From Botryllus schlosseri (Eukaryota), in contig CM119379.1 of the NCBI GenBank assembly GCA_051294905.1, forward strand, positions 4,774,001 to 4,838,000: a stretch of 64,000 nucleotides of DNA. The letters are read 5' to 3'. The position numbers were made by a program, and so were the translations under genes. The notes under the pieces are model-generated. The model was not told the DNA's origin. It did no database searches and was given only the letters and a program-made list of their open reading frames with translations. This document shows positions 18,809 to 63,025 of the stretch, piece after piece. Each line of letters starts with the position of its first letter. Within the stretch, counting starts at the first letter, position 1.

Positions 18809-18821
18809 TTTATTGTTTCTT

Positions 18822-22076: not shown

Positions 22077-25000
22077 TTACACATTTAATGGCAGGGTTGA
22101 CACACCATCCTCGAGCACTCGACGTTTGGCATAGAAATAGGAAAATGTTTTACGCTGTTGTTTGTACGTATAGACACCCCCATCTCTGCACCGAAACCCC
22201 TTGTTCACTCCCCCGACAGATTGCCTAGATGTCAAGAAACCCAGAAAAGTTTCGAAATCGACTGGGTTGGATTTCTGGAGACCTTTGGAAGCCAATTTTT
22301 TCTTTGGACCATCACAAAAGTAATTTTTGGATTGGAGACCACAGAAAGATGTACCACCTTCATACTCCACTTTCATCTAACCCGGTTGACGAAGGTAATA
22401 CGCGTACGTGTCTTTGCAACACTGCCTCGAGCGATCAAAAGAAACCGGGTCAACCAAAAACTCAGTTCGGTGCTCATCACAAAAATAGCGTGGAAACCAG
22501 TTCTCATATTCAAGATAAAATTCATCCCATTTCTCGGGGATAAGAATATCATCGAATGAGGCTGAATGCGAGAGATAGAGGGAGTCTGTGTCCATCATTA
22601 ATAGCATGAAGCACTCGTCACGGAAATATTTACACAAGCAGTCATAAAAAAACGACAACATCTTGAGCTTAGCATTGTTATACACCCAGAATCCTACTTG
22701 AATACAGTTACCACACTTGATCGTTTTAGGTCGCTTCGTTATTTCAAATAGATCAGCGTTCAATTCGTCACATTTCACAAAAAAACGATCCTTCACGTTG
22801 GTGCCTAATTCGCTTTTATCACAGTAGGAGGTTCGTTTGAATTTACGCGGGTTCATCAAGACGCGGCCATAGCTGCTGTTTCCGGCTAATTTTTGTGTCA
22901 GGGCAATGATCTCTAGGCTAGGGTCGCGGTCCCCAGCTCGTCGACAGTCTGAGACATTTTTCGCAAAGTTGTCAAAACAGGTCTTTTTTGTGAATTCGAC
23001 CGCCTCATGAATTTTGGATATAACCAACCCGTGCTCTACATACCACTTGATCAAGTCAGAGGTCAACAAGATTTTCTTGCCCCAGTATGAAGCAACTAAC
23101 ATGCGCGTGGGTTTGGTGAGTAATTTACGATCAATGGCAAACTGTTTCATGTGACCTGTCAAATGCTCGCGAGACACCATCGTATTTTTGAATATCGGAC
23201 ATAGTTCAACAAACTTCCTTTGTAAATGTTTTGGCGTAAAAATATCAACTGATAAACATCCGAAGAATGTATCGGTCATTACCATCTCCATCAATTTTTG
23301 TGCGGTGACAGACTTGGCTCGAGTCAATTGTGGTTGAATACCATTAAGATATCGCACAATATCAGGATTATCCTGTTTCTCCGTGTGCCAGTCGCATTCC
23401 CATTTACATATGACTTGGTAATTGAGGCTTTTGTAATAATCATGAACACGTTTAGTCCGTTCTCGACGTTCCAAATCATCACAGCCAAATCTGCACTGAT
23501 GTGCATGGAAATGACATCCAAGAAAAGACAAGATTACCCCTTGACCAGCTGAATTACGATAGAACCCATCAGCCGGATAATTACGAGCTCCTACACGGAT
23601 TTCAGGTCCATTAAAAGCATGGTGGACATGTACATTGTGGGTATACGAATACCAGTTTAGCCATTGAGCTGCTGTCTCCCCCCATTTCGGCGCGGTCTTC
23701 ACCGGTTTGAATTTAGTACACTCAGCATCAAGTGGTTGCCAATGTACCGGGAAACCAGTTGGACTAGGTTCACTCAAAGCAAAAAGGTATAACGAATTGC
23801 TGTCCAGCCCTGTTACATGTTGGGTAATCTGAGCGTTTTCCTTATAAAAAAATTCTTTGATTCGAGTTTCACCCTGTTTTTGATATCGATGGAAAATGAC
23901 TGACGGTCCACCCACTAAATTATCTCTGAATAGCGAAACCAGATCCTGGTGTTTATCATTGAACAAGGTGAAATCACGTGGAATGCTATTGAAAAGATGC
24001 CTCGATACAACCCCGGGTAGGGAGACGGCTTCTTTGAATATATCCACACTGAATTGACTTTTGAAAGATTGAAATTGTTTTTTTAACCCCTCAATGAAGT
24101 AATGAGTATCGATTGCGTTGTATCATTTGAGATAATCACGTAAAGTGGTCATTTTGTTATCGTTCCAAACCTTCAGACAGTTTTCATATTCAGCTGTGGA
24201 TATATTACGACCTTTTAGCGAGCTGTAAAACTCATCGTGGCTAGGTAGACTCGTATAATCCAGCTTTTCCAAACTAGTCAGAAACTCATACAGAAAATGA
24301 CCTTTAGCGGCGCTACATTTGAAGGCTTTCAAATAAGCATCGTACGAGAACCCGGGTGCCAAGTAATTTACAATGTCCAAAAATTTGAGTCTGTTGGTTG
24401 TCAACGAGAGGAAGTTGTTACCGCGCTTCAATACACTCAGATTTTCATCAACGAGTAAACCCATCAAGTACTCTTTGAGACAGTTCAAGTCATACCGACC
24501 ACCATTGAACGACAAAACAGGGATTTGTTTTAAATATCGCATAAACTCCTCTTGTAAACGTTCAAGAGGTATTTTTTTCTCGGAAGGATCGAGTGCTTTC
24601 ATTTCGGTAATTTTAGTTTCGAGCATGTCCAAGTAGTGTTGATTTTCCGTCTGTAACAACCTAAATGACTCACTTTGAATATCATGAAAATGATCAACCA
24701 TTTCCGCACACAAGTCGTTTGGGTCACCGTTCGAGACAATTACATACGGTTCCAAGAACCCTTCCACATTAGAAGATATGCTAACAGAAATGGGAATATG
24801 TTTGCACTCCCATGAAGTTTTGGAGGAATCTGGAATATCACACTTCTCAAACATACTCTCGATATCAAACGCGATACGGTATTTGAAATAACGAAGCTGA
24901 TGAGGAACAAACACCCCTTCTAGATCAAGTTTTTCAAATATGTTCAGAGGAGGTGTATACACGCCGCCGGGAAACACTTCAACAGGTTCCGTTGTACATT

Positions 25001-25670
25001 TGTGTCTGGTCAATTCATACTGCTCATAAAAAAATCTTTGACAAACATCACATCGATAGCTCTCTGCATAACGGTTCACGTTAGTAATGAGACAGAAATG
25101 GTTGCTTTCTAAATGTAAGTACACAGGTTTCGCTTCAAATGTACTACGACGGAGTGCGACAGCTTTACCCTCAGTTTTTGTGTACACAAATATGGCCACA
25201 TTAAACAAGTCCTCGATATCGTCCAGCATATCAAGAGTTACACCAGATTCTACATTGATACCATATACCGAAGTGAATTGTTGGGCCATTGCTTTTGTAT
25301 CTTTTCCTAGCGAGTGACCAATACAGCGGAAAGCACAGAGATTGTCTCTGTACCGATTTCGATTTGTTTGATGGGTAAATGTCATTATACATCTCGCTCT
25401 CGCAAGCCACGTCGGTAGTTTAATACCAACACAACCAATCAACACACCCTCGGTAGGATATTCATATATCTGCGGGTTGATCAGACAGGTCGATTGGGTA
25501 TTTTGGAAAACATCCGACCGCTTACGATTGCTGACGCTAGTATTGCGCACGTGGTTACTGTTCACTACATACGATTTCACCGCTTGCCAGTTCTGAGATG
25601 TAATTTGCTGCTTTTGGTTGTCGATCTCTGGCGGTGCGTGTTCTTCATGATTCCAAAGGTGTCGAGTCAT
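22077..25670 (-). pseudogene. Protein-primed DNA polymerase B (pPolB), Pol-B1; two in-frame stops
   Basis: FDIESM, SFNGGRYD, GLDSNSLY, KLAGNSSYG, MDTDS; vOTU-like DNLCAF...H, Zn finger and VSR-like insert. Stops TGA 24125-24123 (TGG in Pol-B2) and TAG 22379-22377; all three pieces share one frame. Confidence 0.95.
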
Positions 25671-26028
25671 CTGTAAAATTGATACCGCGTGGCTACATTC
25701 AACACTTGGGAATATTAAACTAGTGTTACTTACAATGGGGTTTCTTTTTCGGTATCTTCCTTGGATCTTTATACTAAACAAGTAACACGTCAAACTATGT
25801 CGCTAACATAGTAATATAACAGATAACTCACCAGTAGACTTGTGTACCCCACTTAATCATTGAGTTCGCTTTGTCTGTTCAACAACAAAATCATTACATC
25901 ATGCTCAATAGTTCTACACAGCAATAACTCACCGTTTCAATTCTTTAATCCCACGGTTGTTTTGTCTGGTGGATAAATAAATAACAAATTATATTCATAA
26001 ATCAAAGTATTCGCACCGAATAACTTAC
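25671..26028 (-). other. Four-intron/micro-exon cassette upstream of pPolB, Pol-B1
   Basis: GT-AG introns 26028-25966 (63), 25932-25875 (58), 25831-25774 (58), 25733-25671 (63); exons 33/43/40 nt; ends CAG|ATG. Confidence 0.75.
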
Positions 26029-26335
26029 CTATTAAACCCTTAATCCCTGTGTCAATGTAATCTCTATATGTAAACTATATAAATCTAATGACATAACCGA
26101 CTTGAGATATGAATTAATGTTATCCACCTGGAAAACAAATGATACATTAACACACAATACAAAAAAAAAATCATATTAAACAAACATAATGTACAATTAA
26201 ACCCCAATAACGCCACACACACAATATATACAAGTACATCTCAATAAAATTCAATGACAGGATTATTTTCTTGGGTCGCTATGAAAATGATTGAGATCAT
26301 GAAAAGACACATCGGCATCGTATTTCGATATCAGC

Positions 26336-27043
26336 TCAACCAATCAACAAACCGTCAGTGGGGTATACGTAAAACTGTACATTAGCCAGACAGACTGCCC
26401 TGTATTTTGTATCTGGTCGAGAGTCTTGTAACACATCTAGTGCCGTTTCCAACCTTATAGATTCAACAAATTCATCGAATTCAGCTAGTGATGTAATCGC
26501 TGCTGGGACTTCTAATACGCTATCGATGTTCGCCGACGCATGAAAATACCGAAATCTCCCAGCCGCGACGTTATGTAAAATGATTCCATACGCAAAATTC
26601 ACTTTGAAACGAGTCGACTCTGAGAAAAATATCGCTTGGATATCGCGGAAAACATCCGGTATCTCACGATCGATGACTCGGATATTATACACGCGCCGAC
26701 TCTGATTCACTACATATGATTTTATCGCTTGCCAGTTCTGGGATACAACTTCTTGGTATTGGTCGCCTGTCTCTGGTGGTGTGTCTTCTTCCTCGCGAAC
26801 ACGACTCCGTCTGCGTCGACTCACAGACTTCAGCCCCACCTGACGCGCTATATCTGCGTGGTTTGGTTGCATTTCGATCGTTGTCGTAGAGTTGCGTTCT
26901 GTGGCTTCAACTCTTAAATCAGGCGTCATAGGATCACCAGAATTAATCGCATCAAAGATATCCGCATTCTCTTCAAATTGCGATTCAAATGCATTTGGTT
27001 CATAACCAAATTTATCAAGATTATCTATCTGAGCCTCGGCCAT
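26336..27043 (-). CDS. Stand-alone terminal-protein-like ORF (paralog of pPolB N-terminal domain), Pol-B1
   Basis: SQNWQAIKSYVVN...FKVNFAYGIILHN...YFH...RPDTKY...LLIG matches the Pol-A pPolB N-terminus (FKVNYAYGFLLYN...YFH...RPDTKF...LLGC). Confidence 0.8.
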   Translation of the reverse strand: MAEAQIDNLDKFGYEPNAFESQFEENADIFDAINSGDPMTPDLRVEATERNSTTTIEMQPNHADIARQVGLKSVSRRRRSRVREEEDTPPETGDQYQEVVSQNWQAIKSYVVNQSRRVYNIRVIDREIPDVFRDIQAIFFSESTRFKVNFAYGIILHNVAAGRFRYFHASANIDSVLEVPAAITSLAEFDEFVESIRLETALDVLQDSRPDTKYRAVCLANVQFYVYPTDGLLIG

Positions 27044-34262: not shown

Positions 34263-34270
34263 AATGCAAC

Positions 34271-36952: not shown

Positions 36953-36987
36953 GTTGAATGCCCTAAAATCTGCAGCGCGAGCTGTAT

Positions 36988-37605: not shown

Positions 37606-37608
37606 TTA

Positions 37609-40600
37609 TTACAGAGATAAAGGCAATGTATGAATTCCATCATTAAGCACAATCCTTTTATAATAACCATAACTCAAAGCACTTCGATATTGCTTATACG
37701 TAAACATATCGCTCCCATAGCAACGAAAACCGCTATTGACGCCACCCGTGATCGATCTATTTTGAAGAATGCCTTTGAAATCTTTGAAAGTTTTGTTGGC
37801 CGTTTTTTGAAGCCCTTTCGAGTTGTACTTATCGGTGTCGCCTTTGCAATAATAGGTCTTGGAATTCAGGCCTATAAATCCATGACCGACCCATTCCTCT
37901 TTGAATAAACCAGGTATACGTTTCGAGTAATTGCGAACCTCAATGCAGCAAGCTTTATCAGTTTTAAAACCAACGGGATCTCGTTCAAAATCGCATTTAT
38001 GCTCTGCACATGCGCGAGCCACGAACCATTTGTCGTGATTTTCAAAAAATTGTTTTTTCATGGAAGGCTTGATGAGAGAATAGATCGTATCGGAGCTTAA
38101 GCTTATGTACGCCGAATCAGTATCTGTTTCGAGGAAAGCCCAATCGCTATCGTCCAAATACACATGCAGACAGTCATATAGGAACTGGAGCATTCTCAGC
38201 TTGGCACAGCAGAATATAAAGAAGCCCACAAAGATTGGGTTTTCGTGACAAATGTTTAGCGGACGCGTAGCTACTTCGAGCAAGCCTTCATCGCTCTTAT
38301 CAATTTCAACAGCATCGACAAAAATTTTTTTTTCAACGCGCGATGGTAATTCTTCCGACGTAACGTATTCGTGTTCCCTATATTTATTAGGGTTTTGAAT
38401 AGTACGGCCGAAAGCACTATTTCCAATCGTCTTCCAGGTCAACGCCTCCATTTCACGGGCCGGATCTTTCGGGAGGACATCGCCTTTGCTACGCTCAGAG
38501 GATACCCGCTCAACGAAGGGTGTGAAAACTTGTTTTGGTTCATATTCGACAGCTTGGAATACGCGAGTCACGATCATGCCACTTTTCAAGTACCACTGAA
38601 GCAAATCCGTATTAAACAACTGTTTTTTCGTGAAATAACTAGAGCCCAGAAATTTTTTTGGAAACTTAATATTGTTTTCCTTGGCGTATTCACGCATATG
38701 TTCACCGATATCGCACTCGTTTACTTCCATATGTTTGAAAAAAGGAGGTAACTCTTCGAATTTCGATTTTAAATGGTCGGGACAATGAATGTCACACTCG
38801 ATTGCACCGAAAAATGACCCGTCTAGCGTGCGCTTGAGCAACTGCGCTTCAGTGAGATAATAAGCTTTCGTGACTTTACGCTCGAACTTTGAGACAAATT
38901 GCGCAATTTCGGGGTCTCGTTTCATATTCGTCCAAACGCACTCCTTCATTCGGATAACGGTATATCCCAATTTTTCCAAATACTCCGTGTTTTGTTTGGT
39001 GAGCTCACGCCTCTCGGCGTTCTCTTTATCAGGGAAGCAGCTCCTACAAGCGTGGTAATAGCACCCATCGTACTGAAAGATGAGTTTACCGGCGCTCCCG
39101 TCGATAAATAGGCGTTTATTTCCGATTCTCACTTGACTACCGTTCCAAGCGTGCTGAATTTTGATGTCACGAACGTGACTTTCGTATTCCAACCATTCAC
39201 GCTCCGCATGAGTAGGCCAAACGCGCTGTTCATGGAATTTTTGCTTTTCCTCATCAAAAATCCACCTTATAGGATAACCCGTTGGCATATTTTGATTTAT
39301 GCATCCCAAATACAAGGCATTTGCGTCATATCCTACTACTTTCTTGACGGTTTTAGCACTGTCACCGTAGCGAAGACTGCGTATTTTCGTTTCATCTGCC
39401 ATAGCGTATCGTGACGTAATCTGTGACAAACCTCCTATCAAGTTGTTCAGAATCGTTTCGTGAAGGTCAGCATTGGCCTTATTCAGAAGAGTGATTTCAT
39501 AGCAATCACGAAACATCAGTCTACTTGCTATATTCGGAAGGCTCACGTTACCCTTGAACATATCGATACCAAGCGTTTTGTAAAATTCGAAATTGTTATT
39601 CAGCGCAGTTAAGAAGCCAATGACGTCACCTTCGTTGTAATATCGGAGAAAATCACGGAATGTGGTCATACCCTCGCGTTCCCATACAGCGACGCATTCT
39701 GCGTATTGCTCTTCCGTTATATTCGAATTGCGGAACGCGTTGTAAAACGATTCATGACTCGGTAGCGACGTTTCGTCGAGGCGTTCGATGCTATCAGGAT
39801 ATTCGTTGGGGAAATAAAATTTTGCGTTCACCCCATCCCCGTACAGCTTCATGTAAGCATCCAAACTATAACCTGGACTCAGGAATAGCGAAATGTCCAG
39901 AAATTTTAATCTGTGCGTTGCGATTGTCAAATAGGCGCTGTTCCTTTTCAAAACGAAGAATCCGCTTTCCTTGTGCAAGGATTTGATTAAATATTTCTTG
40001 CATAAATTCAGATCGTAGCGCGAAGAATTGAAACCGATTATGGGTATCTGATCAAGCCACGTATGAAAGCGATGTGAAATATTATCCAAATAGGATCTTC
40101 TATTGGTAGGATCGATCAATTTCCGTTCTTCAATCAAATTCTCAAGTTCGATTATTTCGCTAGCGTAAGATTCTCGCATTTCGGCTGAGGCGAGTTCCTG
40201 TACGCGATAAATTTCCCCAATCATTTCATCGACCAACGTCTGCGGGCAACCCTCGGATATGAAAGTTTTAGTTTCATTCGTTACGTTATTTGATAAGGAT
40301 ACGGAGACGGGGACGTGCCGATTAACGTATTCCACTTTTGCAGAATTAGCTCTGAGCTCATCCTTCACGAGCATGGATTCAAAGTCAACACATACGGTAC
40401 GGGAAGAATCTCTTTTGTTCCTCAACGAAAATGCCTTCGGATTCCAATTGTTCGAATACGGTGGGTTTCGGTCGATATACGCCGCTAGCATATTTCCGAG
40501 TCTGGGACGTTGTGCATTTTTGTTTTATATGCTGCATCATATTGTCCTTAGTCTTGAAGAAAAACTTGCACAATTCACAAAAGAATGTCTCGGAATAATT

Positions 40601-41485
40601 TTCGATATTTGTAATCAGGCAAGAATGACCACTTTCCATGTGTATATGAACCACTGGTCCATCCGCTTCAGACTGTCGCAATAAAAATGGTTGATGATCG
40701 CGTTTTTCGTAAACAAGTATCTTTACGTGAAAACATTCCTCGACTTTGCTTAGTTCATCGAGTGGTACACCATCATCTATAGGGATACGATATCGTTCAC
40801 GGAATTGAGATGCCAATAGTGCGACGTGCTTCTCGTCTCGTTTTTTCTTGATGAAATGGGATAAGCGTCGAAAGAGGCATAGCGAATCGTTAATCGGTCC
40901 TCCTTGTCTATTTCGAATGAACGCTCTAATATGACGACATTTTGTTACCTCCTTAGATATCGATGCGGTGGGGCAGCCCAATAAAACTCGTGGCATTTCG
41001 TACAAGAAAAATTGGATATGTAATATAGCAACGCAGTAAAACTTAGTGTCCGGTCTTGCTTGTCTCGCCTGCTCGTAAGCAGCTGATAAATCGATTTCGT
41101 TGATAAAACGATCAAAGTCCTCCCGTGAAAGTATAAGTGTCGGTAGATCCAAAACAGCATGGGTTGATTGAGGATGAAAATAGCTATGTCTTTCCGTCTC
41201 TCGATTATACAGCAGGAAACCATATGCATAGTTCACTTTGAATTGACGCAATCTTCTCGGGTATATCGATGACATGCGTGCATGAATATCATTCATACCT
41301 CTCCCGATCAGACGTACATTGATCGCCTCTCTTGCACCCCTTGCAACCCTCCTGCTGTTAATCCATTCGGAATCGATAATCGAGTTGGAGTGCGATTGCA
41401 AAACCTCTGTTGCGTCGTTATCAAAACCGAGCGATTCATCGATGATGAAGCTAGCATCTTCCTCGTAGCGTCTTCGACGAGCCAT
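37609..41485 (-). pseudogene. pPolB with fused TP-like, vOTU-like, Zn-finger and VSR-like domains, Pol-A (one frameshift near 40390)
   Basis: DFESM, GFNSSRYD, GYDANALY, KTIGNSAFG, ETDTDS; DSLCLF...GH; CELC...H..C; QYDGCYYH; YRMC/VDFES junction shifts frame. Confidence 0.95.
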
Positions 41486-41518
41486 ATATTTTTAAGTATA
41501 TTCTGCAAAAATACACAT

Positions 41519-42091
41519 TCACAAATTTATTCCATATTTCAAACGCAATTTACACTTGAAAGCTTCATAAAGAAATAGAAATTTGATATTTTCTAAGTTA
41601 CGCAGTTCATTGGCATCGGGACCAAATTTATCGATATCTTTAAGCACATTTTTTGCAATAACGAGAAAATCTTTTTGCCATTCCCCATATCCTTCCAATG
41701 AGACCATTTTTCGCCAAGTAGCAACTCTCTTGATATCATCATCAATAAAACCTTCAAAGGTAGCGGTCGTGGCGTCTCGCGTACGTCTTGTGTCTCCGGA
41801 ACCGTATTGTTGTAACAACATATTTAGATCTTTACCACAATTAAAAGGTTCCATATTAATCTGAGAAAACAAATCAAATATACCAGTCATTGTACTGTCG
41901 TTTGATCTCATCGAATTTGATGTAAAATTCACGTGCATGCACACTGCCTCATCAATAATTGTCACGTCAACATCACTAGCCTCGTCCTCTTTACTCTTTT
42001 CAGCTGCAATCGTAACTTCGATCAATTCTACCTCAACATCGGAATCGAAAACACCAATCGGTAATGTATCTGCTTGATTATCAGGAATCAT
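41519..42091 (-). CDS. Hypothetical acidic protein (190 aa), Pol-A cargo
   Basis: Intact ORF downstream of a TATA box; no motif recognised. Confidence 0.6.
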   Translation of the reverse strand: MIPDNQADTLPIGVFDSDVEVELIEVTIAAEKSKEDEASDVDVTIIDEAVCMHVNFTSNSMRSNDSTMTGIFDLFSQINMEPFNCGKDLNMLLQQYGSGDTRRTRDATTATFEGFIDDDIKRVATWRKMVSLEGYGEWQKDFLVIAKNVLKDIDKFGPDANELRNLENIKFLFLYEAFKCKLRLKYGINL

Positions 42092-42176
42092 AGTTGTTCA
42101 TTTGCTAACTACGTCGCTTGCATTCTCTATTGTCGACATCCTTTTTGTGGTATAGTTTAGTTCGGATTCGAGCCTC

Positions 42177-42407
42177 TTTTATATAGTGAACCACATGCGC
42201 TTGACATGCGGAGAGCGCGTGATTGTACTCGTGGCATTCTTACTAGCATTCTAATTAATGATAACACGTACCAGGAACGGATATGAGCTACGTGTCCTTT
42301 TCTGTGAGCGGGCGACGTTCTAATTTCCGTGATACGACCTCGGGGCCTATCATTCGATCGGTACCAAGCACATATTCCAATGGTGCATAGGTCAATATCT
42401 ATATAAA
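42177..42407. promoter_or_regulatory. Divergent promoter region with two outward-facing TATA boxes, Pol-A
   Basis: TATATAAAA on minus (42185-42177) and TATATAAA on plus (42400-42407), between head-to-head ORFs. Confidence 0.55.
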
Positions 42408-42444
42408 GCATACTGATCATGAGAGTATATCAATTCGGATAGCA

Positions 42445-43026
42445 ATGTCGAACATTGATCAAAGCGATTCGCTACCTAAGCGTAGTGTGGATCCTACAAA
42501 TTACGCTACATTCAACTGCGCTTGCATCGGTACCACAAGTAGCATAGAAATACGCGAAGATGAAACTCGGACGGGTCCCATTGAACAGAACCAAGCTATG
42601 ATAAATTACAGAGGGGAACAGATTTATGAATGCTATGCGAAGCATAGAGATGTAACTGTCTCCCCGTTGAATGATCCCGTTTTCTATAACATGATACGCT
42701 ATGCTCGTAGACTAAGCACATTTATGCGGTGGCCGGATAATATCAATACCTCCGGAGCCGAGCTCGCAGACTGCGGATTGTTCTATTTGGGCTATAAAGA
42801 TCATTTAAAGTGTTTCTCGTGTGGCGGGCTGTTTCAAAATTGGTTGCCGTGCGATGACCCCTGGCTCGAGCATGCAAAGTTTTATCCTTCGTGTCCTTTT
42901 CTTATAAAGCGCAAGGGGTTGCCATATATTCGTAATGTCTGTTATGCGACACCTAATATAAGAAGAGGCTCGACTAAATTTGATGGCGAGGTGGAATTGC
43001 GTGATGACTGTTGTACTTATGTTTGA
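42445..43026 (+). CDS. Single-BIR inhibitor-of-apoptosis (IAP)-like protein, Pol-A cargo
   Basis: RLSTF..WP...LADCGLFY.G..D.LKCFSCGG.F.NW...DDPW.EHAKFYPSC: full BIR with CxxC...H...C zinc ligands; no RING. Confidence 0.93.
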   Translation: MSNIDQSDSLPKRSVDPTNYATFNCACIGTTSSIEIREDETRTGPIEQNQAMINYRGEQIYECYAKHRDVTVSPLNDPVFYNMIRYARRLSTFMRWPDNINTSGAELADCGLFYLGYKDHLKCFSCGGLFQNWLPCDDPWLEHAKFYPSCPFLIKRKGLPYIRNVCYATPNIRRGSTKFDGEVELRDDCCTYV

Positions 43027-43525
43027 TATTTCTTTTCAAAGAATGAGTCTAGCAATCCGTGGAGATACTATTCTGCCCCAGGGGCCCTATAGAAAAGACT
43101 TGTATCTTTTTAATGACATCACAAAATTACGTATCGAAGCCTCGAATGGAGCAGAATTGACCTCGGATCAACTCTTTGTACATTCCACAAGCGGGACCAT
43201 TCAGAAATATCGAGCCACTCTGAAGCATGAAGGAGGTTTGGTCGTTACGTATACTCGAGACGGGATCGAACATTATCAACCTCTGAATCCGGCTGACGAA
43301 TTCGTCATCTATTCGCCCAGTGTAGTTGTTCCTAATCCCGACCTTCCGCTCGTGTCGTATATACTACAAGCCAGTGATCGATACATCAAACAAAACGGTC
43401 AGATCGAACGCGAGAACTCGGATCGCAGCGTCGGATGGCAGCAAAGCGGTGTACCTCGAAACATCAACCGATCTGGAGGATTTCAACACGCGAATCGACG
43501 CAATGACGATCAACGATATCATTGA
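42980..43525 (+). CDS. Hypothetical protein, Pol-A cargo (likely start 43043)
   Basis: Open 181-aa frame followed by AATAAA; no motif recognised. Confidence 0.55.
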   Translation: MMARWNCVMTVVLMFDISFQRMSLAIRGDTILPQGPYRKDLYLFNDITKLRIEASNGAELTSDQLFVHSTSGTIQKYRATLKHEGGLVVTYTRDGIEHYQPLNPADEFVIYSPSVVVPNPDLPLVSYILQASDRYIKQNGQIERENSDRSVGWQQSGVPRNINRSGGFQHANRRNDDQRYH

Positions 43526-43759
43526 CATGCTCTTTTTTGAAATAAAATGAACTCCTACACTATACAATGCTATTTCAATGAGACCGAGTAAAGTGTTAGG
43601 AGACAAGAAAAGCGCTGAATCGTATGAAATGAGGTGACTACAGGGTTCGAACCTACAACCTAGATCAAGATAGTTGGCTGATTCCTCTGTGATGACGTTA
43701 TGAATGACGCGAGAATTCATATTCTCAAAAACAGCTCAGTACGCATAATCATGATGATA

Positions 43760-50828: not shown

Positions 50829-51064
50829 TAAGGTGTGAAACGCCGCGCAGTATCGAGAGGGAAAGGATTGTTACATAATAGAAATAAAAAGCGAGTCACC
50901 TAAGCGCGTGAAAATGAATCCTATAAATGGATATCGCTGCGTGTCGTACTTTATTGATCTGGACATCATCCGCGGGTTGCAACAGTTAGATTGAGCTATA
51001 GAGAACGACGTATTTGGCGAGCTGAGTATATTCAAGAGCGAGTCGACGGTTAACTACTTAATAG

Positions 51065-51423
51065 GTAAGTTATTCGGTACGAATACTTTGATTTTTGAAT
51101 ATAATTTGTTATTCGATTATCCTACAGACACAACAAGCGTGGAATTGAAGAATTGTATTGGTGAGTTATTACTGTTCAGAATGATAGGAGCATGATGTAA
51201 CGATTTTGTTGTTGAACAGACAGAGCAAACTCAAGGATTAATAACAACACGCAAGTCTACAGGTAAGTTATCTGTTATATTACTATGTTAGCGACATAGT
51301 TTGACGTGTTACTTGTTTAGTATAAAGACCCAAGGAAGATACCGCCAAAGAAACCGCCTTGTAAGTAACGCTGGTTTAATATTCGAAAGTGTTGAATTTG
51401 ACCCTGTGTTATCGCTTCTACAG
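51065..51423 (+). other. Four-intron/micro-exon cassette upstream of the TP-like ORF, Pol-B2
   Basis: Introns 51065-51127 (63), 51161-51219 (59), 51263-51320 (58), 51361-51423 (63); exons 33/43/40 nt; CAG|ATG at 51424. Confidence 0.75.
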
Positions 51424-51912
51424 ATGAGTCGACGACGTAGAAATCGCGTTCGCGAGGAGGAAGACACACCAACAGAGACAGGCGACCAATATCAAGAAAT
51501 TGTATCCCAGAACTGGCAAGCTATAAAATCATATGTAGTGACTCAGAGTCGGCGCGTGTATAATATCCGAGTCATCGATCGTGAGCTACCAGACGTTTTC
51601 CGCGATATCCAAGCGATATTTTTCTCAGAGTCGACCCGGTTCAAAGTGAATTTCACGTATGGAATCATTTTACATAACATCGAGGCTGGGAGATTTCGGT
51701 ATTTTCATGCGTCGGCGAATATCGATAGTGTATTAGAAGTCCCAGTGGGGATTACATCACTAGCTGAATTCGATGAATTTGTCGAATCTATAAGGTTGGA
51801 AACGGCACTAGATGTGTTACAAGACTCTCGACCAGATACAAAATACAGGGCGGTCTGTCTGGCTAATGTACAGTTTTACGTATACCCCACTGATGGTTTG
51901 TTGATTGGTTGA
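51424..51912 (+). CDS. Stand-alone TP-like ORF, Pol-B2
   Basis: Near-identical to the C-terminal 160 aa of 26336-27043, ending at the same LLIG* codon. Confidence 0.8.
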   Translation: MSRRRRNRVREEEDTPTETGDQYQEIVSQNWQAIKSYVVTQSRRVYNIRVIDRELPDVFRDIQAIFFSESTRFKVNFTYGIILHNIEAGRFRYFHASANIDSVLEVPVGITSLAEFDEFVESIRLETALDVLQDSRPDTKYRAVCLANVQFYVYPTDGLLIG

Positions 51913-52237
51913 GCTGATATCGAAATACCGCCAGGACTTGCACAATCAAGATGTGTCACACCGTGTCTTTTCATGATCTCAATCACTTTCATAGTGACCC
52001 AAGAAAATAATCCTGTCATTGAATTTTATTGAGATGTACTTGTATATATTGTGTGTGGTGTTATTGGGATTTATTTGTACATTTTGATTGTTTAATATGA
52101 TTTTTGTATTGTTTGTTAATGTATCATTTGTTTTCCAGGTGGATAACATTATTTCATATCTCAAGTCGGTTATGTCATTAGATCTAAATAGTTTACATAT
52201 GGAGATTACATTGACGCCGGGATTAAGGGTTTAATGA

Positions 52238-52616
52238 GTAAGTTATTCGGTACGAGTACTTTGATTTATGAATATAATTTGTTATTTGTTTATCCTACAG
52301 ACAAAACAAACATCGAAATTTAAACAAAGAATTGCAGAGGTGAGTTATTACTGTTCAGAACTAGCGAGTGTGATGTAATGATTTTTTTTTGTTTGTTGTT
52401 GAACAGACGGAGCGAACTCGAGGTTCGAGTTGGATACACAAGTCTACTGGTAAGTTATCTGTTATAACACAATTCAGCGGATATAGTTTGATGTGTTGGT
52501 TGTTTATTAAGCATAAAGAATCAAGGAAGACGCCGAAAAAAGAAAATAGATTGTAAGTAAGGCTAGTTTGATGCTCCCTATGTGCTGAATTTGACCGCGT
52601 GTTATCAATTTTACAG
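52238..52616 (+). other. Four-intron/micro-exon cassette upstream of pPolB, Pol-B2
   Basis: Introns 52238-52300 (63), 52340-52406 (67), 52450-52511 (62), 52553-52616 (64); exons 39/43/41 nt; CAG|ATG at 52617. Confidence 0.72.
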
Positions 52617-55600
52617 ATGAGTCGACGCCTGTGGAATCACGAGGATGAGAATGTGCTGTCAGAGATCGACAACCAACAGCAACAAATTACATCTCAGAAC
52701 TGGCAAGCGGTGAAATCGTATGTAGTAAACAGTAGCCACGAACACAATACTATCGTCATCAATCGTAAGCGGTCGGATGTTTTCCATGATACACAATCGG
52801 TCTGTCTGATCAACCCGCAGTTATATGTATATCCTACCGATGGCGTGTTGATTGGTTGTGGTGGTATTAAACTACCGACATGGCTTACAAAATCGAAATG
52901 TATCATGACATTTACACGTCGAAAAAATGGTACGAGACTCAAGGTCAATCTGTGTGCTTTTCGCTGTATAGGTCACTCGATAGGTAAAGACACCAAAGCA
53001 ATGGCCCAACAATTCACTTCAGCATATGGTGTAAATGTAGAATCTGGTGTGACTCTTGACATGTTGGACGATATTGAGGATTTGTTTAATGTCGCCATCT
53101 TCGTGTACACCAAAACCGAGGGTAAAGCTAGCGCTCTCCGACGTAGTACGTTTGAAGGGAAACCTGTGTACTTACATTTAGAAAATCGACATTTCTGTTT
53201 AATTACTGATATGAGGCGATATATGGAGAGCTATCGATGTGATGTTTGTCAAAGATTTTTTAATTTACAGTACGAATTGACCAGACACAAATGCGCAACG
53301 GGTCCTGTTGAAGTGTTTCCGGGTGACGTTTATAGCGCTCCTCTGAATATTTTTGAAAAACTCGATCTAGAAGGGGTGTTTGTTCCTAACCAGCTTCGTT
53401 ATTTCAAATACCGTATCGCGTTCGACATAGAGAGCATGTTTGAGAAGTGTGATATTCCAGATTCCTTCAAAACTTCATGGGAGTGCAAACATATTCCCGT
53501 TTCTGTTAGTATCTCTTCTAATGTGGAAGGGTTCTTGGAACCGTATGTAATTGTCTCGAACGGCGACCCAAACGACTTGTGTGCGGAAATGGTTGATCAT
53601 TTTCATGATATTCAAAGTGAGTCATTCAGGTTGTTACAGATGGAATATCAACACTACTTGGACATGCTCGAATGAAATGAAAACGCGCGATCCCGCCGAT
53701 AGAAAAATACCTCTCGAACGTTTGCAAGAGGAGTTTATGCGCTATTTAAAACAAATCCCTGTTGTGTCGTTCAATGGCGGTCGGTATGACATGAACTGTC
53801 TCAAAGAGTACTTGATCGGTTTACTCGTTGATGAAAATCTGAATGTATTGAAACGAGGTAACAACTTCCTCTCTTTGACAACCAAAAGACTAAAATTTTT
53901 GGATATTGTGAATTTTTCGGCACCTGGTTTCTCGTACGATGCTTATTTGAAAGCCTTCAAATGTAGCGCCGCTAAAGGTCATTTTCCGTATGAGTTTCTG
54001 ACTAGCTTAAAAAAGTTGGATTATCCGAGTCTACCCAGCCACAGCGACTTTTACAGCTCGCTAAAAGGTCGTAATATATCCACAACTGAATATGAAAACT
54101 GTTTGAAGGTTTGGAATGATAACAAAATGTCCACTTTACGTGATTATCTCAAATGGTACAACGCAATCGATACTCATTACTTCATTGAGGGGTTAGAAAA
54201 ACAATTCCAATCTTTCAAAAGTCGATTCAGTGTGGATATATTCAAAGAAGCTGTCTCCCTACCCGGGGTTGTATCGAGGCATCTTTTCAATAGCATTCCG
54301 CGTGATTTCACCTTGTTCAATGATAAACACCAGGATCTGGTTTCGCTATTCAGAGACAATTTAGTGGGTGGGCCGTCGGTCATTTTCCATCGATATCAAA
54401 AACAGGGTGAAACTCGAATCAAAGAATTTTTTTATAAGGAAAACGCTCAGATTACCCAACATGTAACAGGGTTGGACAGCAATTCGTTATACCTTTTTGC
54501 CTTGAGTGAACCTAGTCCAACTGGTTTCCCGGTACATTGGCAACCACTCGATGCTGAGTGTACAAAATTCAAATCTGTCAAGACCGCGCCGAAATGGGGG
54601 GAGACGGCAGCTCAATGGCTAAACAGGTATTCGTATATTAATAATATACATGTCCACCATGCTTTTAATGGACCTGAAATCCGCGTAGGAGCCCGTAATT
54701 ATCCTGCTGATGGGTTTTATCGTAATTCCGCTGGTCAAGGGGTAATCTTGTCTTTTCTTGGGTGCTATTTTCATGCACATTTGTGCAGATTTGGCTGTGA
54801 TGATTTGGAACGTCGAGAACGGACTAAACGTGTTCATGATTATTACAAAAGCCTCAATTACCAAGTCATATGTAAATGGGAATGCGCTGGCGCACAGAGA
54901 AGCAGGAAAACCCTGATATTGTGCGATATCTTAACGGAATTCAACCACAATTGACTCGAACCAAGTCTGTCACCGCGCATAAATTGATGGAGATGTAATG
55001 ACCGGTACTTTCTTTGAATGTTTATCAGTCGATATTTTTACGCCAACGCATTTGCAAAGGAAGTTTGTTGAACTATGTCCGATATTCAAAAATACGATGG
55101 TGTCTCGCGAACATTTGACAGGTCACATGAAACAGTTCGCCATTGATCATAAATTACTCACCAAACCCACGCGCATGTTGGTTGCTTCATACTGGGGTAA
55201 AAAAAATCTTGTTGACCTCTGACTTGACCAAGTGGTATGTAGAGCACGGGTTGATTATATCCAAAATTCATGAGGCTGTCGAATTCACAAAAAAGACCTG
55301 TTTTGGCAACTTTGCGAAAAATGTCTCAGGCTGTCGACGAGCTGGGGACCGCGACCCTAACCTGGAGATTATTGCCCTGACACAAAAATTAGCCGGAAAT
55401 AGTAGCTATGGCCGCGTCTTAATGAACCCGCGTAAATTCAAACGTACCTCCTACTGCGATAAAAGTGAATTGGGCGCCAACGTGAAGGATCGTTTTTTCG
55501 TGAAACATGACGAATTGCACGCTGATCTATTTGAAATAACGAAGCGACTTAAAACGATCAAGTGGGGTAACTGTATTCAAGTAGGATTCTGGGTTCATAA

Positions 55601-56201
55601 CAATGCTAAGCTCAAGATGTTGTCCTTTTTTTATGACTGCTTGTGTAAATATTTCCGTGACGAGTGCTTCATGCTATTAATGATGGACACAGACTCCCTC
55701 TATCTCTCGCACTCAGCCTCATTCGACGATATTCTTATCCCCGAGAAAAGAGATGAATTTTATCTTGAATACGAGAACTGGTTTCCACGCTATTTTTGCG
55801 ATGAGCACCGAACTGAGTTTTTGACTGATCCGGTTTCTTTTGACCGATCATGACAGTGTTGCAAAGACACGTATGCGTATTACCTTCGTCAACCGGGTTT
55901 CATGAAAGTGGAGTCCGAAGGTGGTACATCTTTCTGTGGTCTCCAATCCAAAAATTACTTTTGCGATGGACCAAAGAAAAAATTAGCTTCCAAAGGCCTC
56001 CAGAAAGCCAATCAAATCGATTTCAAAACTTTTCTGGGTGTCTTGACATCTAAGGAAGCTAAGGGGGGAGTGAACAAAGGGTTTCGGTGTAGAGATGGGG
56101 GTGTCTATACGTACAAACAACAGCGTAAAACATTTTCCTATTTCTATGCCAAACGCCGAGTGCTCGAGGATGGTGTGTCAACCCTACCATTAAATGTGTA
56201 A
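52617..56201 (+). pseudogene. pPolB, Pol-B2 (about 4 frameshifts plus a CGA>TGA)
   Basis: Five ORF pieces collinear with the Pol-B1 pPolB; breaks near 53673, 54887, 54996, 55200 and TGA at 55851. Confidence 0.95.
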
Positions 56202-56547
56202 TTGGATATTTTGTGTGTTATTGCATTTTATTTGTATATTCTGTATGTTTGATTTTATTTTGATTTATTACTTGTTTATATGTTTGATTTACTTGTGTGT
56301 GGTAACGTGTCATTTGTTTGCCAGATGGATAACACTATTTCATATCTAAAGTCTGTCATGTCAATAGATTTACATAGTTTACATATAGATGATTACATTG
56401 GAGCCAGTGATGAGCGGAGTCTGCTTTTCGAGACTCCGAGTCCCTCCGACAACTTTGGTCTCTGAGGCAAAGTCCCTCCGACTCCGGGGATCTCAATCCC
56501 AGACTCCGAGATAACCCGAAGAATCTTGTCCAGTCCCCGAAATATAT

Positions 56548-57196
56548 TCAGACCATTGTCGAAGAATCCCAATCGATGTTTTCGATAGCCTGTCTGATAT
56601 TCATACCAGTTTTTTTAATATCCGTGAATTGCCGAACAGTCGCAACATTACTTCTGAGAGTCAAGTTCTCTCCAACAAAATGGACAGTCAAGCTAATGGA
56701 ACTGCGACCCTTTAGATCGGTCCACATATCTGTGGTGATGCCAGCCAGCCCATAACACTTGATAGCAACTCTTAGTTCCTCTGACAGCTTCTGCTTCAAA
56801 GATGAAGCCTCCTCATCGAACTTACGTTACACCGTAAATCTGGATGGCAAAACGTCTTCTGCACAACACCACGGCAAACCGGCACTTCTTCGGTATTCTC
56901 CAGAATCTCAACCCGGCGATCAGTGTTCCCCATGATCACCTTCTCCTTTAATTACTAGCTTACTTGCATTTCAACTGCGATCAATTCTTCTTACAAGCTT
57001 CGATATGTCTTCGAAGATGCGACGTACCACTTGTCAACTTGTGATGCTTTAGCTGAACATTGCAATTTTGACATCTCGCAAACCCAGTATACTGGCCGTT
57101 ATTATCATGCAGCATCAGAGTTAAATCCTTCCACACGTCACTCTTTTTCTGCGTCTTAGTGAGTAACCCACTTGACGTCGACGGTGCTTCAGCCAT
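56548..57196 (-). pseudogene. hAT transposase remnant (BED finger plus first catalytic region)
   Basis: SDVWKD...ARCQNC...GTSHLRRH (BED); LPSRFTV; TTDMWTD...SLTVHFV (first catalytic Asp); C-terminal half missing. Confidence 0.88.
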
Positions 57197-58035
57197 TATA
57201 TTAAAACGACGAAGGAAGACCAGTCAGTTCGAACTAACTACCACTAACACCACTGAAATCGACGATCACATCACAGGTTTCAGTAAATTAAGTTCCGCAT
57301 CGCCATGAAACAGTTGATGGAACTGCACTGCACTAAACATACATGATGCATCACTGACACACCGATCGACGCTCCTTGAAGTTGACTAAATGACTAGTGA
57401 CTTCCAATTTTAAAGCTGCTACATGATATCTGGAATTTGGAGTCTGAGACAGACCAGCAGCAGAAACTTGATTGCGGTGCTGATTTTTCATATCACATCA
57501 AAGTCATTTCTCAATCAAACCAAACATTACATGACGAAAATTCAGAAGAATTCTGGATGACTGACTACGTCAATCAATATTGAAGGAAGCGTAGTTGAGT
57601 TGATGCGAGCAGAGCAAAGCAGACGGTTGTAGTTATTTAGTGTGGCTGTTCAGAAATTCGGAATATCCTGTTTTTACAGGGTAAGATCAGCTTACCTTAG
57701 TGATTTATGTATTGTTGAAATCTTTAAAGTGGGCTTAGATGCTGGTATGCCTCTGTGAGCGGATCTTACTAGCGAAAATTCGTCGCAATGTCATTAAATC
57801 ATGTAACACATTGCATAAGTTATTATTGTTTCCATCCAGATACTTGCTTGTTGTATGTATATTTCTCACAGATATAAAGGTAATATTGATGTAACACTTA
57901 TTATCGATATCTCTCACTGCAAATTGCAAGTACGATGAAAGTTGCGAAAAGTTATCACAAAAGTGGTATCGGATATTATCTTGTTTCAACTGATACCAAC
58001 GTTGGGAATACATTTTCACAAAATGGACCTATTAC

Positions 58036-61000
58036 CAGGGTTGTAATGACTCGAGTCATGACTCGACTCGAGTCAGACTCGAGTTACGATTTTTTTGTGA
58101 CTCGACTTGACTCGAGTCATTTTCTTGAAATGGGAAAATGACTCGACTCGACTCGAGTCAATATTTGGATTGACTCGACTTGTACTCGAGTCATTACGCA
58201 TGACTCGACTCAAGTCATTGACTCGGCTTATTTTATGTGACTTGAAAATGAAGAAAGTTGCGAATCACAATGGTTAGATCAACGCATGTGACGAATTCTG
58301 TCGACATCGCTATTTTTCACCACTGCTTTCGTTGCACTCGTCTGATATCAGATATGCGCCGCCGTAAAAACAAAAGACAATGGTAGCCTACATAGTAGCA
58401 AAGAGCAATGCATTGTACAAAATCATCCAGTGATGAAGAGGTAATAGATCCTCCGCGATCAAAGTACTCAAGACATTTCAATTATATAAGCAAACAATCG
58501 AAGCAAAGTTCAATTATAGCCAAAGAAATGACTCAGATGGTCAAGTAGCCTACTTGGAAGAGACTGCATGATAAGCTCATGTGTAGATATGAAGGCGATG
58601 ATTCTTTGCATTTTTGGCCGACTAGAATGGATGAGTATCTAATGCTCTTCAGTGTGGTTCAAAATTGCTTTTCAATTCCTGCATCTAATGCACCAGAGGA
58701 ACATGTATCCAGTGGATGTGGATTATTCTAAGGCCATGCCGCCTCAACATATATGAGAATCTCCTTTCCACTTTAGTATTTTTCAAGTGTCACTCATTGA
58801 TTTGATCTGCTGTCTGTGAAAACACACAATACCCTCCGTCCGTTTGACGTTTTGTTCGGTATGTGCATTGTGCACGTGATAATAATGAGTGGCTAATGTT
58901 GTGTGATATTTGTACAATAGGGCCGATCAAAAATACCTTCTTTTTTATTCTACTGGGTGGCTACTAGGGATGGTGTGAACGTGAGGTTCACGTTCGCGTT
59001 CTGTGTGTGAACCTCGGAAATTTAGAGGTTCGCGTTCACAACAGAACCTTGGTAGGTTCTGCACTGTGAACCCTTTTCAAATATTACAATTTTCACTTCA
59101 TTACAACATCGTTGGTTCAAATTTATTGCATTTCAACTGCAGAACACTCTATGCATGGCGATATAGGCATAAAAAAATCAACACTAAACGAGCATGTACC
59201 TTAACAATCTCAAAAGTTTTACTTGCTTTGTTGCAAAAGTTTGCTCGAAATATCCAACTTTCCGTTTGTAAATATTTATTGACCCTCTGCTGCGAGCTTG
59301 ACCCACAATCACAAAATATCACGATCGATATAAGCTACGTAGTCAGCGAATGATGCTTATTCAACTAATCAATCTAGCAGGAGTATGGGGTCAATCTTGA
59401 CTTCATATGTTTACTGGATCATTAAGACCAAATCGGTGCGATTGAGGTGTTGGCTACTGCTGTATAACTTGTTAATGGGGTAATATTGGTAACAAGTATA
59501 GAAACCCGTTTCACACTCTGCTCAATATCAATGTAGCAATACTCAGACGCCGAATACATTTTCCGATCTGTCATACGAAAAATGTGACTCGAGTCTGACT
59601 TGAGTCAAGTCATCTCAATACTGCTACAAGGCTATATCTGCATCTTCCTTGCCCGACGGCATATGCACATCATGTACTCATGGTATGCATATACGCAGAT
59701 CGTGTTATGTATATCATCAGTCGGTGTATATGCCGCAAGAACATCAAGGACAAAAATACGTCCCTTCCTTCCCTTTTATTCCCTGGTAAGTCTGCGTCAA
59801 AATTGTTGGCAAAGCGACGGAAGATATTCATTTTATGAGATTATTATATAATTTGATTGCCCCAGTTGATACATCTGGCGACGTTTAAAACGTCAATATG
59901 CATTTCAGCCTTGTGACGTAATGTTGCCCGAGTCGTCGCAAGGTATCGTGCACGTTAATATAGGCTATCATTTCATTGAAGGATAGGTTGGAATTAGCAA
60001 TATGACGTCCCGTGACGTCATGAGGTTCACGTTCGTGTTCACACAGAATCTTTCAAAAAGGTTCGCGTTCACACGAACCTGAACCTTTTAGAGGTTCACA
60101 CCATCCCTAGTGGCTACTTCATAAAATCGCTACGTTGCATAAAAAGAACACTAAATCTGGCCTAATTTGAAAAAGTGGAATCAATGAAATGAGAGGAGAA
60201 AATTTTGGATTTGAAAATACATGGAGTATTTTTAGTGAGAAATGATTTCATAAAATATAATTACATATTAGCAGTAAGTCGACTATTTTTTCATATCCAA
60301 AATATCCCACTCTAATAACTCCGCTTCGTCTAGTTTGAATTGAGCCAAATTTTCTATGAATCATATTTTTACACAATCTAACAATATCATGAGGTAGCCG
60401 GTACATTTCGAAAGTCTCTATTTGTAATTAATCCAAAATATTTTCTCTTAGCATTGCTTTCTACTGGTTGGAATTAAGCCAAATTTAAGTTCTTTTAGAT
60501 AATCTAACAATTTTAAGAAGTAGCCTCTTTTTTGACATTTTTTCCTCATTTTGAGATTCTTTTGGTAAATGTAGGGCAAATTCGACTAAGACAACAGTAA
60601 ATCAGCACTAAAGTAACGCTCCGGCGACTATTTCGGCAGCTGAGCAGGAAAGTTGACCTTATTTCTGGCCAACCACCTAATATGATGTGAAAGAAAAACT
60701 GTACCTCTACATAAGCGTTTATCTGTTGATTCTTTACCAGCTTGTATCTAGCTAGACGTGACTTCGTAGGTCCTCTATCAGATAGTATGTAGACGTGAAT
60801 TCGTTAATTATCTATCAGCTATTTGTGAGCGGTCGTCGATGTGCTCGTAATAAAAACTGAATGCTTTTATTTGTGATATATCAGACTGACAAGACGGATA
60901 TTTGATTTAAAGTTCTAAGATTAGTAACGTTATCGTATTGGCGGCCTGTCTCGTCTATCTGTAGCATCGGTATATGAGGCCTGGAACTGTCTGTTATCTG

Positions 61001-61298
61001 CCTAACTAAATAAACTTGTGCCAAGACTATGATAGGGATAAATAAGCATGTTTGGCAAGCAAGGAATTCGATATCACCCAAGCAGGATTGAAAACATAAG
61101 TTGAACATGACTTCAATACTGTGACTTGGACTCGACTCGAGTCATAACACTATGACTCGGACTTGGCCCTTAAAACGGTGACTTGGACTGGGACTCGATT
61201 CAATATTGAATTGAAAATGACTCGACTCGACTCGAGTCAAAACCACAAAAGTCAGATTGACTCGTGACTCGGAACCATGTGACTTGGTTACAACCCTG
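58036..61298. mobile_element. Non-autonomous hAT element with GACTCGAGTC arrays, nested in 56405-61990
   Basis: TIR CAGGGTTGTAA / TTACAACCCTG; perfect 8-bp TSD CCTATTAC (58028-58035, 61299-61306). Confidence 0.92.
58965..60109. mobile_element. Non-autonomous hAT element nested in 58036-61298
   Basis: TIR TAGGGATGGTGTGAAC / GTTCACACCATCCCTA; perfect 8-bp TSD GTGGCTAC (58957-58964, 60110-60117). Confidence 0.93.
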
Positions 61299-62414
61299 CC
61301 TATTACTATATTGAATGTCATCAGGATAATGGGATATATTCCGTTATGATCATCAACTTGCTGGAAGAATCAGGTTAGCCAAAGGCTGTACCATAGGGAA
61401 GCCCCGCTGTATGTTGCTGATTGTAAATGTTTCGCACAATTACTGGGGTAGCATGAAAATTAGTCACGAAACAAATACGCAAGGAGGAATATGATGTGAC
61501 TATAGAAGACTGCAATGACAGCAACGTGGAAGATTCTGGAGATCTTATCTCATAATATGGTGACATTCAGCAGTGGATTCAAAGACTGCATCTCATTGCA
61601 GGGAAAAATGATGCGCTGCGAACGATATTGGGTGTCTTCAAGTTTGTGAACTACAGACACTGCTCAGCGGAAATGCCTTGCTAGATCACTAGGTTACTCT
61701 CCAGTCCCCAATTGCCGTGCAGATGACTGATTTTTATGCACTTGTCAATCATTTTTGCATGTTACCGGTCATATTACAACTTTACAAGGTGTCAACTGTC
61801 TGTGTTTTGGTTTGTAATCAATAGTGTCTTCTGGTCAAAGCTATCGAAAGATATCGCGGGCAAAACTAACAATACTCCGTAAAACTCCGGAAAAATATCT
61901 GTTGTAAACTCCGACTCCACTCCGGGTATCACAAAATTGGCAAAACTCCGCTCCGACTCCACTCCGACTCCGCTCCGGTGCTCATCACTGATTGGAGCAG
62001 GAATTACCACAGTTCATGATTCTCGACTCTACCAACAACTCACAACACCGACGATACCTGATTGATACAAAGCAGACAACTAGAACTTGTGCTCCATGGT
62101 GCGGTCTAAAGTTTTGTATAGAAACACTGTTAGCTTTTAAAGCGCTATTAATCCTCTCGTATTATGAATCCTCTCATGTGATTTATTATTTTGTAGATTG
62201 GGATCAGCTGCTTGACGATCTGAATCGTTTGTAACACTACAACTTCGACTGACGACGAGGGACAGATGAAGATTTCATAACCCATGGAAAATTGCTAAAT
62301 CGAACTCTACTGGGCTTATATATTCCACTAGAACAAGATGACTACAACAGTGGATATTCCCAACCTTGTTGATATATAAACACATGCACTTTATCGAGTT
62401 TCAATAAACAACAA

Positions 62415-63025
62415 ATGATGGAATTGATCCACTCATTCGCGTGTATTGTGAGTGGTCCTTCAAGAAGTGGGAAGACTACTTTTGTTGCAAAGCTGATTAG
62501 GCATGCGACATCCATGATTAAACCAAGTGTATCCAGGGTCGTATATTGTTACAATAATTATCAGGAGGTTTTCAAGACGATGCATAACGTAGAATTCCAC
62601 GCCGGTCTAGATATTTTAGAAGAGTTGAAGGTTTGCTCTGAAGACACCTTGATTATAGTGGATGATTTCATGACTGAGACGGCGAAAATTGCAGACTACT
62701 TTACAAGATTTTCTCATCATTCAGCCAATCAATTTGTTACGTCACACAGAACCTGTACCACAAGGGTAAAGGAGCACGTGACTTGAGTCTTTCAAGCTCG
62801 TATATGGTGATTTTCAAGAATCCGCGCGACCAACAGCAGATCAGTTTTCTTGATCGACAAATGTACCCAAACTCTAGATTTTTAACAGAGGCTTATCGTG
62901 ACGCTGCTAGACAACCTCATAGTTATTTATTCCTTGATCTCACGCAAGAAGCACCTGAAAATCGACGAGTTATGACCAATATATTTCCTGGTGAAACCAT
63001 GGTGGTTTATAGCCCGATGGTATAA
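62415..63025 (+). pseudogene. Packaging ATPase, Pol-B2 (1-nt deletion near 62729)
   Basis: GPSRSGKT, IIVDD; GCCAATCAATT versus GCCAATTCAATT in Pol-B1. Confidence 0.92.

Follow-up and report, generated by a model that had tools for sequence, protein, structure and literature searches.

A predicted multi-intron, non-coding 5' leader of the protein-primed polymerase gene in Polinton-like elements

The window, which is the whole stretch of 64,000 nt that was analysed, carried three copies of a cassette of four intron-like segments placed directly upstream of genes for a terminal-protein (TP)-like domain and the protein-primed polymerase (pPolB) of Polinton-like elements. Judged from its conservation across the genome, the cassette is very probably a spliced, non-coding 5' leader of TP-pPolB. 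The original prediction of a spliced multipartite leader was thus sustained by conservation as a non-coding leader of TP-pPolB, while no junction read was seen in the sibling copy L091. A fuller model, in which this leader serves as a splicing gate within an operon resolved by host spliced-leader (SL) trans-splicing, is considered probable. The expression of Polinton genes is barely known, and the leader, the SL sites and a split of the polymerase gene are all missed by annotation based on ORFs only.

Polinton-like elements and leader cassettes of the window

Three Polinton-like elements, X, Y and Z, were recognised in the window (Table 1). Matches to PF03175 (protein-primed PolB) and PF00665 (integrase) within the window agreed with an assignment to Polinton/Maverick elements, and the same two families were matched in the sibling copy L091 (E 2e-8 and 4e-16, respectively). 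The inverted repeats (a 644-bp match at 98.8%) and the 6-bp target duplication, with CTAGCG flanking both sides, placed element X in this group as well. The ATPase ORF produced weak matches to AAA/Pox_A32, and 423-aa and 167-aa candidates for capsid or protease were without a Pfam match. Approximately 5.6 kb of sequence foreign to element X (56407-61991) breaks element Z just past the beginning of the next ORF after pPolB. Element Y, which belongs to a different family, carried a BIR (inhibitor of apoptosis) gene at 42445-43026 (E 1e-18).

All 12 segments that had been proposed as the introns of three four-intron cassettes were recovered. Every segment started with GTAAGT or GTGAGT and finished with AG, as claimed, and the last segment of each cassette ended in CAG directly before the ATG of the following ORF (CAG/ATG). 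The exons of cassette B were 39/43/41 nt long, and those of cassette C were 33/43/40 nt long with one ATG in the middle exon. The TATAAAT at 50922 was present, and the leader of cassette A was free of ATG both in its three exons, in agreement with the original prediction, and over 50935-51064. The 99-nt first exons of cassettes B and C contained three ATGs and one ATG, respectively. Three chains of four GTRAGT motifs with a spacing of 85-125 nt were found in the window, while 0 of 300 block shuffles yielded any, and the analytic expectation of such a chain was 2.6e-4 per window. Since cassettes A, B and C were mutually homologous (73-79% identical), they count as one event and not as three.

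Table 1. Positions of the Polinton-like elements, predicted leader parts and associated ORFs in the window
Feature	Position	Strand	Remarks
Element X, Polinton with cassette C	14154-29403	-	inverted repeats ~640 bp, AGTAGT ends, 6-bp target duplication
Element Y, different family	~31400-43700		
Element Z, holds cassettes A and B	from ~48700	+	87-97% like X
TATA-like box	50922..50928	+	aligns with promoter preceding ORF-U in typical copies
First leader exon of cassette A	50950..51064	+	putative start; no ATG
Cassette A (51065..51423), predicted introns	51065-51127, 51161-51219, 51263-51320, 51361-51423	+	63/59/58/63 nt
Cassette A, predicted non-coding exons	51128-51160, 51220-51262, 51321-51360	+	33/43/40 nt
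Stand-alone 162-aa ORF	51424..51912	+	N-terminal pPolB part ending before vOTU motif
Upstream of cassette B	52026..52237	+	duplicated T-rich spacer, acceptor (AG ends 52138), 99-nt first exon
Cassette B (52238..52616), predicted introns	52238-52300, 52340-52406, 52450-52511, 52553-52616	+	63/67/62/64 nt
pPolB gene	52617..56201	+	~80 aa lost inside TP part; four pieces: 352, 467, 240, 115 codons
T-rich spacer and CAG/ATG acceptor after pPolB stop	56202..56324	+	homolog of SL trans-spliced L091 site
235-aa ORF	26336..27043	-	first 73 ORF-U codons fused in DNA to TP domain, no cassette
Upstream of cassette C	26029..26128	-	acceptor (AG ends 26128), 99-nt first exon; same duplication origin as B
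Cassette C (25671..26028), predicted introns	26028-25966, 25932-25875, 25831-25774, 25733-25671	-	63/58/58/63 nt
TP-deleted pPolB of element X	24123..25670	-	first piece 515 aa, then stops

Conservation of the leader family across the genome

DNA and pattern searches of the 495-Mb assembly revealed 89 cassettes, of which 80 were distinct; five of 90 loci that had no cassette match, three overlapping duplicates and nine identical cassettes were left out of the counts. The commonest layout (57 of 93 instances, overlapping loci included) consisted of a TATA box, an upstream ORF (ORF-U), its stop, a spacer, an acceptor, an exon, the four segments and TP-pPolB. Typical copies had an ORF-U of 292 codons, a T-rich spacer of 61 nt, a first leader exon of 175-180 nt and a single cassette preceding one long TP-pPolB ORF. 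Alignment to a typical copy showed cassette A to be a subtype having lost ORF-U, and its TATA box is therefore the ORF-U promoter. No relatives were found among the viral contigs or metagenome contigs searched, so the analysis of the leader covers this genome.

A sister family with approximately 65% amino acid identity, 74% identical in TP DNA, had three GT-AG segments of 69-75 nt in the same place at 15 of 15 loci (13 parsed, two by eye). When intron interiors were compared between the two families, only one pair was clearly homologous (z 5.0), matching intron 3. In two families that are more distant (~40% identity), 18 loci showed no donor chain and had only a single acceptor 1-17 nt 5' of the ATG, which indicates that the chain is not required by such elements. 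One copy, L116, joined the leader and TP start of the sister family to the TP body of the main family, a sign of recombination between families. Apart from the pPolB of element Y, CAG/ATG was absent at the 27 other ORF starts inspected (integrase, ATPase and capsid region), and the acceptors thus mark the early region only. The pPolB of element Y had one T-rich acceptor (41485-41530, minus strand) lying 17 nt 5' of the ATG, right after the stop of the upstream ORF; this junction had the operon-like layout of the main family without the intron chain.

All eight GT/AG dinucleotides were intact in 77 of the 80 distinct cassettes. Donor 1 was excluded from the conservation test, as the copies had been selected on it; the remaining 14 splice columns were 99.5% conserved compared to 89.4% for the 335 background columns, a value matched in 0 of 200,000 permutations, although the copies are related mosaics, so that this and the other P values reported here overstate independence and serve as guides only. 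GT and AG dinucleotides elsewhere in the leader were retained in 78% and 80%, respectively. A further set of 22 loci was approached from the protein side without donor selection; ten of these were not anchored, and among the 12 anchored leaders nine had all eight sites, two had lost intron 1 through rearrangement while keeping introns 2-4, and one was of the sister type.

By sequence, the segments resembled U2-type introns in their GT-AG ends, donor consensus, host-like size and ends conserved beyond the flanks. The cassette introns measured 57-69 nt, and host myosin introns (n=6, scan of 40-400 nt) measured 57-80 nt; an intronless myosin head region, L181 (G000:C8:22962764-22964773), was the query for the host intron sizes. 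The exons were 45% A and 16% T, and the introns were 39% T. No strong branch-point consensus was found in the cassette introns. Introns 2 and 3 were alike (z 2.8 and 3.8), and four of the six intron pairs showed no similarity.

ATG triplets were distributed unevenly over the leader. Exons 2-4 were free of ATG in 73 of 80 copies and contained it in 7 of 80, the first exon was ATG-free in 50 of the 52 typical copies (3.35 expected), and the introns held 4-11 ATGs per copy. At equal allele density, alleles creating an ATG were present at 1/18 exon sites compared to 12/35 intron sites (two-sided P 0.04) and to 27/84 control triplets in exons (P 0.02). The first exon of the sister family contained 0-2 ATG. 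Given that ATGs occur in exon 1 of B and C, in the sister family and in exons 2-4 of 7/80 copies, an ATG-free leader is not a strict rule.

RNA reads and the proposed mode of expression

RNA reads from 4 of 24 listed runs, sampled at 6-13%, were aligned to 7 kb of the sibling L091, which was chosen for its position near the centre of the family, and not to the window copies. None of the listed runs was registered as RNA. One leader sequence was observed 5' of two downstream CAG/ATG acceptors in L091 (15 reads; 78 and 369 reads). This read-borne sequence was identical to the 'Chordata 1' SL consensus, as given in the part of PMC3795323 that was covered; no SL sequence was found in the covered part of PMC3691228. 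A genome-wide count gave 254 occurrences of the sequence, compared to 0 for the control, and GT followed it in two of the four genomic loci inspected. The host is thus likely a tunicate. One of the SL-bearing acceptors is the homolog of the acceptors at 52138 (upstream of B), 26128 (C) and 56324 (after pPolB). The spacers between stop and acceptor measured 61, 106 and 97 nt, with 42-58% T and without a GTRAG donor. The arrangement corresponded to an SL operon in two respects: close same-strand ORFs with unpaired acceptors were present, and the downstream cistrons carried the SL at two of three acceptors. The two downstream ORFs concerned had the same stop, spacer and acceptor layout as that preceding the leader, with SL reads at their start codons. 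Among the listed read ends of L091 no SL end occurred at the leader acceptor, where raw depth was below 2.

In L091, a gene further downstream showed cis-splicing, with a 97-nt GT-AG joint covered by hundreds of reads. A small SL-capped, spliced and polyadenylated gene lay 5' of the ATPase (L091:7214-7746) and had by far the highest expression in the aligned 7 kb (X21 depth ~250 per orientation); its window copies (21780-21444 and 62100-62435) seemingly lack the first exon. A 3.8-kb GT-AG joint connected a TP-internal donor with the acceptor of the next ORF (L091:2725-6568; one contig, two reads). Its GTATGT donor lies 107 nt into TP, and the joint excises almost the whole of pPolB, so it is possibly a non-productive splice limiting the polymerase. 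The donor was intact in the TP regions following cassettes B and C (52718 and 25572), but the two TP-only ORFs present in the window have ATATGT at this site.

Taken together with the conservation data, these observations are consistent with the following course of expression. The early region would be transcribed as a polycistronic RNA and resolved by host SL trans-splicing at unpaired acceptors, with the acceptor after ORF-U receiving the SL for the pPolB unit. In the A type, which has lost ORF-U, the leader would begin at the TATA promoter with a cap. The host spliceosome would then remove the four introns in cis, thereby clearing the upstream ATGs. Since the introns hold 4-11 ATGs and the exons hardly any, translation of TP-pPolB would require complete splicing of the RNA. 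With a conserved spliced leader and host SL trans-splicing, expression would take place in the nucleus, depend on the spliceosome and be attuned to the host, and the four-intron leader would offer a concrete control point for the polymerase; an element usually called intron-free would thus depend on host RNA processing. This also suggests a constraint on host range, as the units would need another mode of resolution in hosts lacking SL trans-splicing. The HUSH complex silences intronless RNA, and escape from this silencing is a possible benefit of the leader introns.

The introns may also be spliced without having any control role, having arisen in one lineage, in part through the doubling of an intron-exon unit, with their ends kept to avoid retained upstream ATGs. 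This explanation, which differs from the preferred reading in purpose only, is possible but judged unlikely. The likeness of introns 2 and 3, the variable intron number (four in the main family, three in the sister family and three in rearranged copies) and the two distant families without the chain are in its favour. However, the chain was present in two families, and apart from the ORF-U fusion type no intron-free version was found in either.

The original prediction compared the cassettes to an adenovirus-like leader, in which shared exons would be joined in cis to alternative acceptors of TP, pPolB and later ORFs. The ATG-free leader, the CAG/ATG preceding several ORFs and the one cis joint that reaches the acceptor of the next ORF agree with such sharing. 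Nevertheless, it is improbable, since a single cassette normally precedes TP and pPolB as one ORF, the additional cassette is a duplicate, split copies have a cassette for each half, and both downstream acceptors receive the host SL. Moreover, the 3.8-kb joint begins within the TP coding sequence and not at a leader donor, and no joint from the leader to a distal acceptor was listed at a leader depth that is too low to exclude rare ones.

The preferred reading of a spliced leader was also weighed against the segments not being spliced at all but representing tandem-repeat relics, DNA-level signals resembling splice sites, or, for intron 1, part of a small ORF. None of the four introns had a listed junction in the L091 alignment, where raw depth was approximately 0.2-1.8 and small exons are hard to align, and contigs of set X1, which may be DNA, covered the cassette unspliced at a depth of 120-200. 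Intron 1 was also exactly 63 nt long in 78/80 copies with a stop-free read-through frame. Against this, conservation was focused on GT and AG and persisted in the diverged sister family, which leaves little probability for unspliced segments. A tandem-repeat origin of all four units was rejected, as only introns 2 and 3 were alike, and a read-through ORF spanning intron 1 was rejected because its omega-like value of 0.94 indicates no coding selection. Of the six frames, another frame of intron 1 gave an omega-like value of 0.43 (P 0.008) with an excess of synonymous-type alleles, yet it contains a stop.

The exons of the preferred leader were assessed for coding capacity. Their length sums were spread over all three frames (23/31/26 of 80 copies), in-frame stops in the TP frame occurred in 75 of 80 copies, and 7-nt exon indels were common, also in copies with a long open pPolB ORF. 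The last exon of the sister family ended with TAA directly before the ATG at 13/13 parsed loci. These mixed frames, the stops and the sister-family TAA indicate that the exons are untranslated. The TP frame itself was under purifying selection (omega-like 0.34). The exons of cassette A are indeed open in frame with TP, as had been noted, but this is exceptional, with 5/80 distinct copies stop-free. The view that the exons encode the N-terminus of TP-pPolB as micro-exons, which A would have preserved and the other copies lost by decay, is accordingly very improbable and largely refuted for the present state by the frames, stops, indels and TAA together with the lack of an upstream ATG after the TATA box in A, although a remote coding ancestry is conceivable.

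Comparison with known systems and split of the polymerase gene

The literature comparison draws on portions of the cited sources. Core genes of Polinton/Maverick elements are described as free of introns, which are confined to cargo genes (PMC8097293; 10.1101/2022.07.12.499685). The present elements resemble them in the inverted repeats with a 6-bp target duplication, the rve integrase, a putative ATPase and a pPolB with uninterrupted coding sequence, but differ in the predicted intron chain of the pPolB leader, the read-supported intron in a small gene and two SL trans-spliced genes. In operons of the ascidian Ciona, same-strand genes lie less than ~100 nt apart, and downstream genes are SL trans-spliced at unpaired acceptors while paired ones are spliced in cis (PMC1488885). 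The same layout with SL at two acceptors was found here; however, the proposed operon belongs to a virus-like transposon, and its polycistronic precursor and upstream 3' ends are presumed.

The adenovirus tripartite leader consists of short, non-coding, AUG-free exons common to many late mRNA bodies (PMC7851563). Predicted spliced AUG-free exons are shared by cassette A and typical copies, but B and C deviate in exon 1, and the Polinton leader would serve the adjacent replication gene while other ORFs take the host SL. Introners of dinoflagellate Polinton-like elements are young mobile introns, mostly acquired after integration (PMC11957031). Both cases concern spliceosomal-type introns in Polinton-like elements; the four predicted leader introns, in contrast, are mostly dissimilar and inherited with the family. 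Searches of openly accessible literature found no spliced pPolB leader or Polinton SL trans-splicing, and neither topic appeared in the covered portions of PMC8502044, PMC11161782, PMC11131425, PMC11296320, PMC12220804, PMC8097293, PMC11957031, 10.1101/2023.08.22.554363 and 10.1101/2022.07.12.499685.

The 162-aa ORF following cassette A corresponds to residues 1-162 of a 1280-aa pPolB whose vOTU Cys motif is at 193. Based on its position and a weak likeness of the modelled fold to Y-family little-finger domains and an adintovirus protein, it is likely the terminal-protein (D1) domain. The model (pLDDT 76) matched Y-family polymerase chains with Z 3.5-4.4 and rmsd 3.6-4.9 over 85-106 aligned residues, and these matches ranked below ATP-grasp (Z 5.6). 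The best viral match of the model was an adintovirus protein (E 5.6e-5).

The two pPolB genes in the window were broken, and the vOTU Cys and His motifs were kept in the split pPolB. Upstream of cassettes B and C lay a duplicate of the spacer and acceptor found after the stop of pPolB. The first gene copy ends after 162 codons, before the vOTU motif, and the second is without approximately 80 residues inside the TP part. This arrangement points to a tandem duplication of leader and gene; the resulting TP-only ORF and TP-deleted polymerase would each have a leader of their own. Split TP and pPolB genes are reported for adenoviruses and a coral polinton in the covered part of PMC11161782. As in those, a stand-alone TP-like ORF is followed by a vOTU-bearing polymerase; unlike them, the present split probably involves a tandem duplication with reciprocal losses and a separate leader for each half. 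The pair can be regarded as a living parallel to the adenovirus split. A lineage whose early region is expressed as an SL operon and whose polymerase lies behind a four-intron, ATG-loaded gate that determines the time and place of its replication, with the split subfamily replaying the adenovirus pTP/Pol arrangement, is offered as a tentative and rather doubtful proposal.

At 8/8 two-cassette loci (including L003, L004, L006 and L012-L015) the TP-only ORFs ended at the same codon and were open at 162 aa, a uniformity suggesting selection. Some single-cassette copies had a TP-deleted polymerase without a TP-only ORF directly upstream. The ORF-U/TP fusion of element X (26823-26824, minus strand) occurred in 13 instances among the loci examined and also as a contig joint (L091:1363-2620). 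It starts at a GT within ORF-U, ends one base beyond the last AG of the leader and makes a new GTGAGT donor; it may represent a plain deletion or the trace of a spliced RNA.
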